64,000 nt of DNA from Candidatus Woesearchaeota archaeon (lineage in GTDB: Archaea > Nanobdellota > Nanobdellia > Woesearchaeales > JACJVV01), in assembly GCA_047602755.1 (NCBI GenBank), contig JBLKOM010000005.1, forward strand, positions 78,936-142,935, written 5' to 3'. This document shows positions 12,266-46,899 of this stretch, in pieces (position 1 is the stretch's first letter; every line of letters starts with the position of its first letter). The position numbers were made by a program, and so were the translations under genes. The notes beneath the pieces are model-generated. The model ran no database searches and was not told the DNA's origin. It saw only the letters and a program-made list of their open reading frames with translations.

Positions 12266-12384
12266 AAATAATTAAGAATAGCTTTAGTATATAAACAAAT
12301 CTGGAGTCAATGTCCATTGCTAATGGGGAAATATAGCTAGAATGTATTATTCAGTTAGAATCAATTTTATAGTTTAAACAATTT

Positions 12385-12471
12385 GTTAATAAAAAAAAGG
12401 GTTGGCAGTCCCTAAGAACTGCCCCCCAGATGATGGATGAAACCTCTCTTTTTAGAGAGAGGAGCATGAAT
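12385..12471 (+). repeat. Copy 1 of a conserved ~87-nt non-coding element (candidate small structured RNA), in the dinB/12701 divergent intergenic region
   Basis: About 85% identical to 15434-15520. Hairpins GGCAGT-loop-ACTGCC and CCTCTCT-loop-AGAGAGG flank the invariant CCCAGATGATGGATGAAACCTCTC core. Confidence 0.6.
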
Positions 12472-12700
12472 TTTTCTGTTTATGATTAATGATATATATT
12501 TTTTATAATTTTTTACCAATATATGTACTTTAATATATATCTTATTTGGCTAATAGAAGCTATATAATACAGAATTGACCCCCATCAACCAAGGTATAGT
12601 AATTGTCTCTTATATATAAATTTAATGGTAGTCAGATAAATGTGTATCATATGTTGTTCTATCTACTACAACTGAAGTTTAAATATTATGGAATAAGTTA

Positions 12701-13732
12701 TTGATAATGATTAGAATGAAGGCTCTGGAAAAAGAAGAAAATAAGCTAAAAGGCCTAGATTACTTGCTTTTAGTTCAGCATGGAGCTTTTTTATATTCTA
12801 CTGGCAAATATGTAGTGTTACCCTCTATTAGTTTTGGTCAGGAAGTAGATAATATAAGCTATAATTTGCACCAAGGTATTGAGAATGTGATGAATGTTGT
12901 TCAAAATATTCAGGAAACTGTTCAAAAACTAGCATTAAAAAATGGTGCGGAGATTCGGGCAGGTAAAAGAATGCTTGAAGATATAGCATTAAAAATGGAA
13001 TATGATATTAATAATGAGATGCAATCTAATCCTAATGAGGTATTAATTCATCAGTTAGAAGCCTTAAATTTATACCGAATGGAACTGAATAATTATTTTA
13101 ATATGTCTTCAAAGTCTTTACAAGATTTATATCATAATATTAATCAAAATACAATTAGTATTGCAAATGTAGGAGATTATATTAGGCCTGAATCTGGAAT
13201 TGTTAATTATTTGTTAAATATTAGAGAAAATTTAAGTAAGGAGCTTGGAGCACCTTCTGGAGAATTACATAAGACAAATCAAATTGATCTTGAGCAAGAA
13301 TATTCTAATATTTTTGGTTTAATATCGGATATCCAAAGAGCATTAACACAAGTGTCAAATATTTATCTTGCAAGTAATCAGGATTATAATGCAAGGCAAG
13401 ATTGGATTAATAATGGTAGATCTTTAATCGAAAAATATCAAACTCTTCAACAATCAAATCAACTTCTTCATGAAATGGATCTTGTTTCTGATAATTTTAG
13501 AGAACAATTAAGTGAGATTGTTCATACAAAAGTTGATACTATTGATTATATGAAAACTAAAGGATATGATGTTTCTGAACCAATGTCATTTATGGTATAT
13601 TTTATTCCTGCGATTGCAGCAGCAGGAAGTTTGATTTTGTATGATAAGATTGTAAAGATTGAAAGAAGAATATTAAATCAAATGTCTACCATTGTGAAAT
13701 CGGTAAGAGGAGTAGTGAATAAAAATGGATAA
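12701..13732 (+). CDS. Hypothetical coiled-coil protein with a C-terminal TM helix
   Basis: 343 aa, Q/N/E-rich helical, hydrophobic segment near the C-terminus. Start overlaps the next gene, suggesting an operon. Confidence 0.45.
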   Translation: MIMIRMKALEKEENKLKGLDYLLLVQHGAFLYSTGKYVVLPSISFGQEVDNISYNLHQGIENVMNVVQNIQETVQKLALKNGAEIRAGKRMLEDIALKMEYDINNEMQSNPNEVLIHQLEALNLYRMELNNYFNMSSKSLQDLYHNINQNTISIANVGDYIRPESGIVNYLLNIRENLSKELGAPSGELHKTNQIDLEQEYSNIFGLISDIQRALTQVSNIYLASNQDYNARQDWINNGRSLIEKYQTLQQSNQLLHEMDLVSDNFREQLSEIVHTKVDTIDYMKTKGYDVSEPMSFMVYFIPAIAAAGSLILYDKIVKIERRILNQMSTIVKSVRGVVNKNG

Positions 13733-14132
13733 TTCAATTAAAATTAATAAAGCATTAGTATGTAATTCGGAAGAAACAGTGATTGAAGTAGCAAGAAGAA
13801 TGCGTGAATCAAATGAGAGACATGTATTTGTTATTAATTCAATGATTGATAAAAAAATTGATTCTAATAATAATAATCAAAAATTAGTTGGTATAATAAG
13901 TACTGTGGATATATGTAATAAGATTGTTGCTGAAGGAAAATCATTATCTACAATGGTAAAAGATGTAATGAACCCAGTAGAAACTGTAGAAAAAAAACAA
14001 GATGAAGAATATGCATTAAAAATAATGATGGAAAGAAATACTTTTACTTGTCCTGTCGTTGATAATGGGATTTTCTTAGGTGTTGTCAACTATAATGATA
14101 TATTTCAGAAAGTTGTTCAAAAGGTGAAATAA
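13725..14132 (+). CDS. CBS-pair domain protein
   Basis: Two CBS-like halves (VGIISTVDI..., GIFLGVVNYNDIF). Confidence 0.65.
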   Translation: MDNSIKINKALVCNSEETVIEVARRMRESNERHVFVINSMIDKKIDSNNNNQKLVGIISTVDICNKIVAEGKSLSTMVKDVMNPVETVEKKQDEEYALKIMMERNTFTCPVVDNGIFLGVVNYNDIFQKVVQKVK

Positions 14133-14133
14133 T

Positions 14134-14781
14134 ATGGATTTAGGAGATAAAGTAAAAAAAATTTGGGATAAAGCTAGATTACAATTTTTTGTTCCATCAA
14201 CAAAAATTGGAATCAAAAATCATTTATTAGATCAATTAAATTCATATTTTGAAGGAAAAGATTCTGAGTCTCAAAAAAATTATTTATCAATTTTAGAAAG
14301 TAATGTTGATGAAAGTTTTGCAAAGTATGAAAAATCATTTAATAGTACAATATCTCAAATAGGCACAGGCATTGGTGGTACTACAGCATTATGGGAGATT
14401 GCAACTCATGCAACAAGGTTAAATGCATCTTTTTTTCCAAATGTAGCATTGACAATAATGGCTGGTAAGACTTCTTTAGAGTTGCCTCATATATATCATT
14501 ATATGAAGAATGCAAAAGACATTAATGGGATTTATGGTTTAGCATTGTATGGTTTAAAGAAAGCTTTTGGGCTTGCAGTTCCAATAATTGGTCCTGCGTT
14601 AGAAGGTAGTTCACTTAGAGACATGTTAGCATCACGTATATCGTATGAAGCAAAGAAAAACTTTTTAATAAAAATTGGCGCATATGAAAATTTATATGAT
14701 AGAATAAAGAGTCACATTGAAAATGTTGCAGGTAAGTTAAAAAATTCAAATTTATACTTGCCAAATCTTCAACCAGTTTGA
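14134..14781 (+). CDS. Hypothetical protein (215 aa)
   Basis: ORF with coherent coding composition, 2 nt after the CBS gene. Confidence 0.45.
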   Translation: MDLGDKVKKIWDKARLQFFVPSTKIGIKNHLLDQLNSYFEGKDSESQKNYLSILESNVDESFAKYEKSFNSTISQIGTGIGGTTALWEIATHATRLNASFFPNVALTIMAGKTSLELPHIYHYMKNAKDINGIYGLALYGLKKAFGLAVPIIGPALEGSSLRDMLASRISYEAKKNFLIKIGAYENLYDRIKSHIENVAGKLKNSNLYLPNLQPV

Positions 14782-14870
14782 ATTTTTTTTTATTTTTTTT
14801 ATTTTTTTTAGAAATTTTTTTATTTTTTTGAATATTTTTTGTTTTTTCTGAATTGTCTCTGGTTTTCATT
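14782..14870 (+). terminator. Extended oligo-T tract (tandem T7-8 A runs), a probable archaeal-type intrinsic terminator
   Basis: tttttttttatttttttatttttttt... immediately after the 14781 stop. Archaeal RNAP terminates at oligo-T. Confidence 0.45.
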
Positions 14871-14884
14871 TATGAAATTTAATA

Positions 14885-15385
14885 ATGAATAACTTAATTA
14901 TTATTTTTATGACTCTATTAAATAGATTTAATAAAATAATATTATATACTGCTATATTTGGATTAGGATATAGTACTTGTTATGCGGATGGATTTTTGGA
15001 AAGAATAAAAAATAAAGTAAATAATTTTACAATTGCAGCTTCTGAATTGGGTGAGGAAATTAAACCTAAATCTATTGATCATCTTTTAATAATACGTTCT
15101 TCGATATCTGAGTTATTAGGTTCTGAATCAGGAGATAAACATAAATTATATTCTTCTTGGAGAAGTAGAGAATATCAGAATATCGATAATTTGATTAAAT
15201 TCTATGAAACTATTATTAATGATGCAAATATTTCTTCTAATAGTTATTCTAAGCTTGACAATTCTTATAATCTATACGAATTAAATACTCTTTTGAATAA
15301 ACTTGTAACACTTAATGTTGATTGTGGTGAATTTAAAGAAAAGATGATTTCTATTGAACTAAAACGTCAAAGATATATTCCATGA
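14885..15385 (+). CDS. Secreted or lipid-anchored hypothetical protein
   Basis: N-terminal signal-like hydrophobic segment ending ...STCYADG. Confidence 0.45.
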   Translation: MNNLIIIFMTLLNRFNKIILYTAIFGLGYSTCYADGFLERIKNKVNNFTIAASELGEEIKPKSIDHLLIIRSSISELLGSESGDKHKLYSSWRSREYQNIDNLIKFYETIINDANISSNSYSKLDNSYNLYELNTLLNKLVTLNVDCGEFKEKMISIELKRQRYIP

Positions 15386-15433
15386 TATTTTTACAATTAG
15401 ATTTTATTTTAATAATCTATAGAATAAAATTAA

Positions 15434-15520
15434 GTTAATAAAAAAAGAGGAGGACAGTTCCGAAGAACTGCCCTACCCAGATGATGGATGAAACCTCTCC
15501 TTAGAGAGAGGATCATAAAT
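15434..15520 (+). repeat. Copy 2 of the conserved ~87-nt non-coding element
   Basis: GTTAATAAAAAAAGAGGAGGACAGTTCCGAAGAACTGCCCTACCCAGATGATGGATGAAACCTCTCCTTAGAGAGAGGATCATAAAT, with the same two hairpins and core as copy 1. Confidence 0.6.
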
Positions 15521-15800
15521 CCCACAGTAAGCTGTGGGTGCCAAATTCGTTGTGATTGATTTTATCAGCTGCTAGTTAGAACTCGGCGATAGCCAGTTTT
15601 TTTGTGTGCCGCTTTCTTTTCGCGATGCTTCATATTAAAACCTTTTGTGATGCGAGCTTGTATAAGCTCAAGCATTATAAAACAAAAGTGCCCGAGGGGT
15701 ATGAGGGGTGTTTGCAAAGAACTTGTGGGCACTTTGTTTCATTTTACATAGGTTAAAGGCTGTAACCAATGATTACAGACTTTGAATGTGATTTTGTAAT
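15521..15800. ncRNA. GC-enriched, hairpin-dense non-coding island (candidate structured RNA of unknown class) in a convergent intergenic region
   Basis: No ORF of at least 60 aa. Contains the perfect hairpin CCCACAG-TAAG-CTGTGGG, the 9-bp stem AAAGTGCCC...GGGCACTTT enclosing a duplicated GAGGGGT, and the palindromes GAGCTTGTATAAGCTC and CTGTAA...TTACAG. GC is clearly above the local background. Confidence 0.35.
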
Positions 15801-15819
15801 GAAAAATTTTGATTAAAAA

Positions 15820-16224
15820 TCATTCATATGAGTGAGCTGGTTTTCGTAATTCTTCTTTCCACATTAAACCAACTTTGAGCATATCATTGTAAAATTTATC
15901 ACTTAAACGGTATGTTTTTTTGTAAAGATCATATTCAACTATACCCATACTTTTAAGAGGGGTTAGTATTCTATCGTAAAATTGTCTTTTATTATATGAT
16001 AGTTTTACTTTTTTTCCTTTAAATTTAGGGTCATCAATCATTGTAACAAATTGACCTTCATGTAATTGGGTCGCAAATAGACTCATTTCAGTTTTATTTA
16101 CTTCATTTTCGTGATCTTTCATAAATTCAACTAATGCTTTTGCAACTATTTCTTGTTGCTTGGTTGCAAATATGACTTCATAAATGTCTTTCGGGAAATT
16201 AAATCTGTCATAAAGTATAACCAT
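15820..16224 (-). CDS. Hypothetical protein, possibly a winged-helix DNA-binding protein
   Basis: 134 aa. The C-terminal region is helix-turn-wing-like. Weak. Confidence 0.4.
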   Translation of the reverse strand: MVILYDRFNFPKDIYEVIFATKQQEIVAKALVEFMKDHENEVNKTEMSLFATQLHEGQFVTMIDDPKFKGKKVKLSYNKRQFYDRILTPLKSMGIVEYDLYKKTYRLSDKFYNDMLKVGLMWKEELRKPAHSYE

Positions 16225-38601: not shown

Positions 38602-38937
38602 CTATTGTTTTCCTAGAAATCGGTAAAGATTTTCAAATTCTTCAAAATCCATATTATTTTCAGTTACTCTATAAACATCATAAACTGGTCCATCAACTCT
38701 TAACCAATGCGATGCGACTCTTTCATCTTCAATAGTTAACTCACCCCACTGCAAATCAATATGCCCATATTTTTTTTGTTCTCTAATAGAATGACCTTGA
38801 GGTTTATTTGAAAAAGATGAAAGCAATGACACCAATTTGTCCACTGCACATTCTAGAGTAATCCCTTCTTCAAAGTGGATTTTGAAATTACTTCCATTAC
38901 TTCTATCTCTCCTTAATTCCTCTACTAAATATTCCAT
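38602..38937 (-). CDS. Hypothetical small acidic protein
   Basis: 111 aa. No motif recognised. Confidence 0.4.
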   Translation of the reverse strand: MEYLVEELRRDRSNGSNFKIHFEEGITLECAVDKLVSLLSSFSNKPQGHSIREQKKYGHIDLQWGELTIEDERVASHWLRVDGPVYDVYRVTENNMDFEEFENLYRFLGKQ

Positions 38938-46754: not shown

Positions 46755-46899
46755 TATTGCTGATATTAATTTAAAGTATATAAATTTTCTGACAAGTTCA
46801 GATTATCTCACATCAATTTAAAAGTAGCTTACGTACATTTAATAAAAACGAATAATTAATAAATCGCTAATTCTAAAAACAGGTAAATTAAGATTAAAA

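Follow-up and report, generated by a model that had tools for sequence, protein, structure and literature searches.

A conserved two-hairpin element of Woesearchaeota, a candidate 3′ module shared by two non-coding RNA loci

The two copies, their setting and their relatives

Two diverged copies of a short non-coding element lie about 3 kb apart in a 64,000-nucleotide stretch of a Candidatus Woesearchaeota archaeon genome (GenBank assembly GCA_047602755.1, contig JBLKOM010000005.1, positions 78,936 to 142,935). This stretch, referred to here as the window, is the extent of the host sequence covered. Copy 1 lies between divergent genes, one encoding a DinB-type polymerase on the minus strand and the other a 343-residue (343-aa) open reading frame (ORF) on the plus strand; copy 2 lies between convergent genes, with ORFs of 166 aa on the plus strand and 134 aa on the minus strand. 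Between them is a block of four plus-strand genes (12701–15385; 343 aa, a CBS-domain protein of 135 aa, 215 aa and 166 aa), to which both copies are antisense. The original prediction had located both copies and described their gene context correctly. A covariance model built from seven homologues and run on the window with its filters off bounds them at 12388–12470 and 15437–15519, both on the minus strand, with scores of 106 and 91 bits; the next match in the 64 kb scores 15.5 bits (38812–38886) and on inspection contains none of the motifs of the element. The identical 24-nt core that had been noted, CCCAGATGATGGATGAAACCTCTC, occurs exactly twice, at 12425–12448 and 15476–15499, and has no further match in the window at up to three mismatches, for which shuffled sequences give an expectation of 0.00. 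The two repeats are far beyond chance.

Further copies, for which the original prediction had proposed a search, are found in related Woesearchaeota contigs, five in number. An exact scan for an 18-mer of the core, to which diverged copies are invisible, covered 185,579 species genomes and returned 19 matches, three of them true and 16 chance matches in GC-rich bacteria, where no hairpins accompany the 18-mer. The true matches are at two loci of the Woesearchaeota metagenome-assembled genome (MAG) HK-STAS-Nano-4, L014 and L018, and at a third locus, L001. The same scan of a metagenome collection gave 36 matches, none of them real, and scans of viral-contig collections gave a single chance match and nothing else. 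Homologues anchored through the 134-aa protein added complete elements at L056 and L060 (L059, which comes from a different run, repeats the L060 sequence but stops within the element), as well as three contigs, L062, L064 and L065, that end within repeat units. No element is present at L057, L058 and L066–68, where the 134-aa protein is only 75–78% identical, or near a DinB homologue of 54% identity (L069). Its absence from these more distant loci indicates that the family is confined to a narrow clade. The setting is AT-rich and archaeal, as had been supposed from the letters, and proteins encoded in the window match those of a Candidatus Woesearchaeota MAG at 100% identity. The record that contains L001 (CAZOOV010000003.1) is titled 'uncultured Methanosarcinales archaeon'; its genes are 61–93% identical to those of the window and its GC content is 35%, and this bin is probably mislabelled or contaminated.

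Superposition of the homologues separates two types, which differ in their 3′ hairpins and in their genomic positions. Type A comprises copy 1 and L014, both between DinB and a homologue of the 343-aa gene, with the 3′ hairpin sequence GGGGGGCAGU...ACUGYCAACCC. Type B comprises copy 2, L018, L001, L056 and L060, with the 3′ hairpin sequence GGGUAGGGCAG...CUGUCCUCC, and in every case has the 134-aa gene 300–700 nt upstream, in the same orientation. Since both types occupy syntenic sites across genomes, the duplication predates these genomes, with both copies retained since. In MAG HK-STAS-Nano-4 there appears to be the same bracket, divided between two contigs. Between genomes the element is 78–92% identical, compared with a background of ∼50–60% for the flanking 83 nt.

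Parts of the element and the strand on which it is read

The earlier description of a conserved, structured, non-coding element with two hairpins and an invariant core is upheld across all seven homologues. Both hairpins are present, and the folding z-scores lie between −3.0 and −4.1 on either strand. Read on the minus strand, each copy is predicted to consist of a hairpin (hairpin A), an exposed 15-nt core, a GC-rich 3′ hairpin and a tract of 5–8 U. In copy 1, hairpin A (CCUCUC...GAGAGG, 12443–12462), whose stem is invariant in 7/7 homologues, is followed by the G-free, single-stranded core UUUCAUCCAUCAUCU (12428–12442), likewise invariant in 7/7, by a terminator-type hairpin with the loop UUAG (12399–12427; folding and alignment) and by a U8 tract (12391–12398), a T-run after the hairpin that marks the predicted 3′ end of the RNA. 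Copy 2 has the same order, with hairpin A at 15494–15511 (alignment and fold), the core UUUCAUCCAUCAUCU, invariant and predicted to be single-stranded, at 15479–15493, a 3′ hairpin closed by a cUUCGg tetraloop at 15448–15478 (folding and alignment) and a U7 tract at 15440–15446, which is evident in the sequence and is called as a terminator-like site. The two hairpins have 7 and 10–13 pairs and loops of 4–6 nt. The predicted probability that the core is unpaired is 0.74–0.88 in the isolated element (0.87 in copy 1) and 0.62–0.67 in the full RNAs (0.67 in copy 1), compared with a whole-RNA mean of ∼0.45. The stem of hairpin A and the core are invariant in all seven copies, six of them independent, from genomes in which PGK is conserved at no more than 61–74% identity.

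This arrangement modifies the original picture in several respects. The hairpin then listed first, here the 3′ hairpin, does exist and is longer than was thought: on the minus strand, 8–10 inner and 3–4 outer pairs enclose a loop of 4 nt (UUAG or UUCG). The copies do share the 'AT-rich 5′ arm' GTTAATAAAAAAA, and it is the complement of the 3′ U tract. The statement that the element is not simply a terminator is half right, in that a terminator-type hairpin with its U tract makes up one of three parts.

The element had been read on the plus strand; the alignment favours the minus strand. In the seven-copy alignment, 98.6% of stem cells are paired when read on the minus strand. Within the stems, variation is confined to six positions and to transitions, which give 18 G·U cells and no A·C on this strand; read on the plus strand, the same 18 cells would be A·C mismatches. 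On the minus strand the 3′ hairpin is followed in 7/7 copies by a run of at least five T (range 5–8), and both copies in the window are flagged as minus-strand terminator-like sites. A cUUCGg loop is found in 3/7 copies, and L056 has a UUCG loop closed by U·G, again on the minus strand. The weak similarities to Rfam families are all to minus-strand terminators of small RNAs (sRNAs). Taken together, these features suggest that the element is very probably a minus-strand non-coding RNA (ncRNA) module.

A product of the plus strand, be it an RNA with a cis-regulatory or leader role or a short peptide (MMDETS..., frame ATGATGGAT), is hardly credible. The plus strand folds well (z of −3.0 and −3.6), and an ATG-initiated frame stays open for 14–20 codons in several copies. 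In copy 2, however, the frame stops after seven codons, at codon 8, and in copy 1 two extra nucleotides in the loop put the conserved bases downstream out of frame; as the original prediction held, this is not a conserved ORF, and a small protein gene was rejected on the grounds that the frame is conserved in neither length nor phase. On this strand, moreover, the 18 stem cells would be A·C and the upstream A-run would have no role. The genes at copy 2 converge, so that no plus-strand gene lies downstream of it, and a riboswitch was also rejected, with no aptamer-class Rfam match at E ≤ 10.

That the copies serve at the level of DNA, either as a mobile repeat of the miniature inverted-repeat transposable element (MITE) or repetitive extragenic palindromic (REP) kind or as a site for protein binding, for instance an origin-recognition box close to the turn in GC skew, is very improbable. 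Such a reading would draw on the same orientation of the two copies, 3 kb apart and bracketing the four-gene block, on the minimum of cumulative GC skew at ∼12 kb, and on the AT-rich stretch adjoining copy 1. Against this, there are only two copies in 64 kb, both at positions that are syntenic in other genomes, and the reclassification as a MITE-like repeat that had been allowed for is not borne out. The copies lack terminal inverted repeats, no transposase or Orc1/Cdc6 gene is nearby, and L014 has repeat units where the window has the AT-rich stretch. The strand-specific G·U pattern, the T-run and a TATA box point instead to a transcript. A replication origin was rejected for the absence of an initiator gene from the scanned ORFs, the direct orientation of the copies and the lack of conservation of the AT-rich stretch. 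The GC-skew minimum (∼12000) coincides with the switch from minus- to plus-strand genes at copy 1, and gene orientation alone may explain it.

Two probable RNA loci and tandem units in relatives

The element had been presented as a free-standing unit of ∼87 nt; each copy is better described as the shared 3′ module of a longer RNA locus. At the type A locus, a TATA box, TTTATATA (12613–12620, minus strand), stands 22 nt upstream of a conserved GGTTGATGG, and the 5′ leader, GGUUGAUGGGGGUCAAUUCUGU (12569–12590), is identical to L014 at 22/22 positions. The box, the spacing of exactly 22 nt and the sequence that follows, GGTTGATGGGGGTCAATTCTGT (12590–12569), recur at L014, where box and spacing are the same; the sequence around the leader has diverged from L014 although the leader itself is unchanged. 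The TATA box, the spacing and the conserved leader together suggest a start of transcription near 12590, and similar TATA-like boxes lie ∼20–25 nt upstream of the ATG of leaderless genes in the window. In the minimum free energy fold the leader pairs with 12548–12560 as a 5′ hairpin; the equivalent in L014 uses a different 3′ arm. Between leader and element is an AT-rich middle part (12471–12547), of which ∼12471–12501, adjoining the element, aligns with the 3′ tail of the final unit in the L014 array (ATCATTAATCATAAACAGAAAAATTCATGCT versus ATCTTTGATTATTTGCATAAATGAACATGCT) and looks like decayed internal-unit sequence. Copy 1 would thus close an RNA of ∼200 nt that has its own TATA promoter and ends in the U tract at 12391–12398.

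At the type B locus, copy 2 is preceded on the minus strand by a structured domain (15539–15819) that is conserved in L018, L001, L064 and L062. It is GC-rich, multi-hairpin and non-coding, and has no Rfam match. Its fold contains hairpins at 15760–15778, 15685–15735 (with an ACCCCU-repeat loop) and 15654–15669, together with a long hairpin with a conserved CUGGCUA loop at 15558–15642. A further hairpin, CCCACAG/CUGUGGG (15521–15538), whose stem covaries (CCCACGG/CCGUGGG, CCCAUGG/CCGUGGG), sits only 9 nt (15512–15520) upstream of hairpin A of copy 2. For the upstream domain, RNAalifold gives 30 pairs, six of them with double compensatory changes, from five sequences. As there is no room for a promoter between the domain and the element, the two are expected to be co-transcribed, and copy 2 would form the 3′ end of a structured RNA of ∼300–380 nt, possibly co-transcribed in its turn with the 134-aa gene (15820–16224, minus strand), which lies outside the element and always precedes the type B RNA.

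Several details of this locus can be recorded beside these results. The loop of the long hairpin (15558–15642) carries a conserved ACA...AACUGGCUAUC, and an internal loop, AUGAAGC...GCUGAU (15627–15635 and 15558–15569), resembles a K-turn of the box C/D type. An ACA...CUGGCUAUCG motif prompted a comparison of the domain with RNase P and signal recognition particle RNAs, an identity that finds no support in Rfam. Pairing of the core with an upstream GAUGAAACC block was also considered and rejected, as this block pairs instead with GGUUUUG within the upstream domain. The hairpin that directly follows the 134-aa gene has C-rich repeats in a large loop, ACACCCCUC/AUACCCCUC in the window (15685–15735) and AAACCACCCC in distant relatives (L057:4440–4500, L058:4448–4500, L066:1035–1095), and the pairing of the gene with a hairpin of this kind reaches well past the clade that bears the element. 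Within the type A leader, a run of G (UGGGGGU, 12578–12586) is complementary to the ACCCCU loop repeats of type B (15695–15715), both on the minus strand, and the two RNAs could interact through this complementarity.

The relatives reveal a further level of organisation. At L014, L018 and L001, two or three internal units of 75–85 nt precede the terminal element, each opening with hairpin A (UUCACGAUCCUCUCUCAGCGGAGAGG), to which are joined a hairpin that varies, the stretch ACC(A/U)CUU and, as a tail, AGGAAUU. These units score 27–31 bits with the covariance model of the element and are homologous both among themselves and between genomes. The 4-nt loop of their hairpin A has a covarying downstream partner in five of seven units (CAGC:GCUG, CAGC:GUUG, CAAC:GUUG and CAGU:ACUG), although RNAalifold prefers a local hairpin to this pairing. 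The second hairpin of the original prediction, which is hairpin A, is real, and its role as the repeat head of tandem arrays in relatives had been overlooked. In the window there is a single repeat head at each locus, the internal units looking decayed in type A and being absent in type B, and it follows that selection here acts on the leader and the terminal module.

These arrays invite comparison with CRISPR. Shared features are an AT-rich leader with a promoter, an identical hairpin repeat of ∼30 nt present three or four times, regular spacing and a single strand. The inserts of 46–56 nt differ in being structured and homologous to one another, so they are not CRISPR spacers, and the 'spacer' in the terminal position never varies and has a terminator at its end. 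Given these homologous inserts, and the one repeat head per locus in the window, a CRISPR array was rejected. Pfam scans of 19 ORFs (2.8–25.3 kb) detected only housekeeping domains and no cas genes within ∼10 kb, a region also without TnpB, reverse-transcriptase, transposase or Orc1 genes; the neighbours there encode ribonucleotide reductase, DinB, the CBS protein, PGK, iPGM, cobalamin adenosyltransferase and a RIO-type kinase.

A processing and 3′-end cassette would account for this same layout in another way, with hairpin A as an endoribonuclease cleavage signal, like the hairpin of a CRISPR repeat. Precursors would be cut into unit RNAs, the terminal unit would combine the last cut site with a terminator, and the upstream bodies would be the functional RNAs. 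The order of leader, two or three copies of a ∼30-nt hairpin repeat with its insert, and terminal repeat in L014, L018 and L001 fits this, as do the identity of the repeat sequence across genomes and the joining of one cassette to two unrelated RNA bodies. We nevertheless consider it improbable: the core is as invariant as hairpin A, which a pure processing signal leaves unexplained, no cas6-like or other nuclease gene lies within ∼10 kb, and the homology and structure of the inserts sit poorly with it.

Another possibility, still unlikely in our view, is that the element is a protein-binding or decoy RNA module in which hairpin A and the (CAUC)n core are recognised by an RNA-binding protein, for instance the winged-helix-like protein of 134 aa encoded alongside, one of the Sm-like kind or L7Ae partners. 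The tandem units of the relatives would then multiply the binding sites, as in sponges of the CsrB/RsmZ type. It is in keeping with this that the stem and core are invariant in sequence rather than covarying, that each of the two or three extra units in the relatives bears a CU-rich ACCUCUU/ACCAUCUU stretch, that ACCCCU motifs are repeated in the loop of the upstream hairpin and that the type B RNA lies invariably downstream of the conserved 134-aa gene. The copy of type A, however, is not linked to that gene, and the window loci have lost their internal units while keeping the terminal module, so that multiplicity is not under selection here. Nor does the 134-aa protein show an RNA-binding fold: its AF2 model (pLDDT 88) gives only weak matches to winged-helix folds (eS19, PadR, MarR), all with E > 0.06. 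The protein is 93–96% identical in sequence to its counterparts at L001 and L018, compared with 61–74% between genomes for PGK at loci carrying the element. It has 3698 homologues, none with a Pfam domain, and all those that have a source name are labelled Woesearchaeota.

Known RNA families and a possible role for the core

The element had been placed outside the known RNA classes, and comparison with Rfam 15 agrees. No family reaches its gathering threshold in the window or at four homologous loci, and matches at E ≤ 10 are only terminator look-alikes. The bacterial families mmgR/suhB (RF00519, scoring 20.2 where gathering requires 41) and sbrA (RF01489, scoring 25.5 where it requires 45) share with the element a GC-rich hairpin and U run on the minus strand, that is, the generic shape of a terminator. 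A search of the window for tRNA and tmRNA found none. A box C/D sRNA was rejected on both strands: the minus strand has neither UGAUGA nor CUGA and no C/D model covers the element, and the plus strand, for which a K-turn reading fails as well, has only AUGAUGG, together with a would-be box D that varies (GUGA/AUGA/AUAA) and the 18 A·C cells. An H/ACA sRNA lacks its two-sided pocket, its GA·AG motif and an ACA after either hairpin. The template and variable pair of a diversity-generating retroelement was discarded because differences between the copies are not adenine-specific, and a type III toxin–antitoxin system (ToxI-like) because the genes downstream are DinB in the window, an unrelated 84-aa ORF in L014 and a convergent gene in type B.

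The closest parallels are of design rather than of descent. In LhrC of Listeria, a G-poor single strand between two stem-loops, together with loops, binds and blocks the Shine-Dalgarno (SD) sequence of its targets (PMC4132741). LhrC1-5, like the CU-rich sRNAs of the RsaE/RoxS type from low-GC bacteria, resembles the present element in having several sibling copies per genome, and shares with it the two stem-loops around a G-poor single strand, the second being the terminator. Differences are that LhrC is bacterial with a UCCC motif, whereas the element is archaeal with a core of the (CAUC)n type, that there is no relationship in sequence or in Rfam, and that the module here is grafted on two upstream RNA bodies. 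Among archaea, sRNA41 of Methanosarcina mazei is an intergenic sRNA proposed to repress translation by masking ribosome-binding sites (PMC5867862); it belongs to another phylum, and the mechanism considered here is deduced from complementarity alone. A full-text search of the published literature did not find a description of small RNAs for Woesearchaeota or DPANN.

On balance we lean towards the explanation that two paralogous ncRNA genes on the minus strand end in a common 3′ module, seen as the two copies, with an exposed core that may pair with initiation regions. In this scheme the invariant core, held open between two stable hairpins, would be the working site and would pair with mRNAs around the SD sequence and start codon, and the two hairpins and U tract would supply stability and form the 3′ end. 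The complement of the core, AGAUGAUGGAUGAAA, resembles an SD sequence (AGGUGAU in this genome) followed by AUGAAA, and the AGGTGAT form is enriched ∼10-fold upstream of starts in the window. Of 65 translation-initiation regions, those of a KaiC-like gene and a ParA/MinD-like gene give the best predicted duplexes with the core, at −17.2 kcal/mol, spanning both SD and AUG. Strong sites outnumber those obtained with shuffled cores at p ∼0.04–0.08, from 65 genes in one window. Seed pairing as the specific mechanism is, in our judgement, tentative and rather doubtful. Judged from its sequence, the element would be a new ncRNA family, restricted to one clade, whose general kind is already known, the hairpin, seed and terminator module of sRNAs. 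The unusual feature is its modularity, with one module on two RNA bodies and tandem units in relatives.

Several observations weigh against this explanation. The enrichment of targets is marginal, a lead rather than a result, and an invariant stem and core suit sequence-specific recognition by a protein equally well, with a processing cassette accounting for the invariance to about the same degree. The sample is small, seven copies (six independent) from ∼5 genomes. Folding energy does not decide the strand, since both strands fold about equally well, and a possible 4-bp extension of hairpin A, AUGA/UCGU, can form its U·G pairing only on the plus strand, in four copies. The stem of hairpin A never varies and is thus uninformative on pairing. 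As to compensatory changes, for which a check had been proposed, the variation in the seven-copy alignment consists of one-sided transitions to G·U with no true double changes; because classical covariation is missing within the element, the structural claim rests on the strand-asymmetric G·U pattern. At the type B locus, finally, a promoter for copy 2 was not located.

Translation signals in the window are mixed. Many genes carry a TATA-like box (TTTATATA or similar) ∼20–25 nt upstream of the ATG, a proximity that suggests leaderless mRNAs, and others carry the AGGTGAT SD sequence (example starts at 12266–12297 and 46755–46784).

A more far-reaching reading, which we regard as quite unlikely, is that these loci are archaeal RNA genes of a modular type not described before, with a terminal core directed against initiation regions. 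Such a gene would comprise a promoter and leader, a variable number of structured tandem units of ∼80 nt, each headed by the same invariant hairpin, and then the invariant terminal unit, whose core would act as a general 'anti-initiation-region' riboregulator on SD and AUG. In reduced DPANN genomes, where leaderless mRNAs are many, it would single out the SD-led ones. A Cas-independent, hairpin-guided RNA-processing array may be an equally novel alternative.

The element offers a concrete and strongly conserved ncRNA family with predicted ends, strand and promoter, which can be searched for in metatranscriptomes. If the core of the favoured 3′ module truly pairs with SD and start regions, it would provide a simple post-transcriptional switch in tiny genomes where leaderless and SD-led translation are mixed; should the module be no more than a 3′ cassette for stability, it keeps its use as a feature for annotating these genomes. 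The tandem arrays of the relatives illustrate the expansion and decay of such RNA genes.

Two observations concern neighbouring genes. The 343-aa and 166-aa ORFs that flank the two copies match the same 137-aa ORF of L018 (37% and 30% identity, respectively) and neither has a Pfam match, and their common match suggests that they have a domain in common. In L056 (4160–4350), about four CACAAYATRTTGTG palindromes lie upstream of nrdD, which encodes the anaerobic ribonucleotide reductase, and resemble NrdR boxes.

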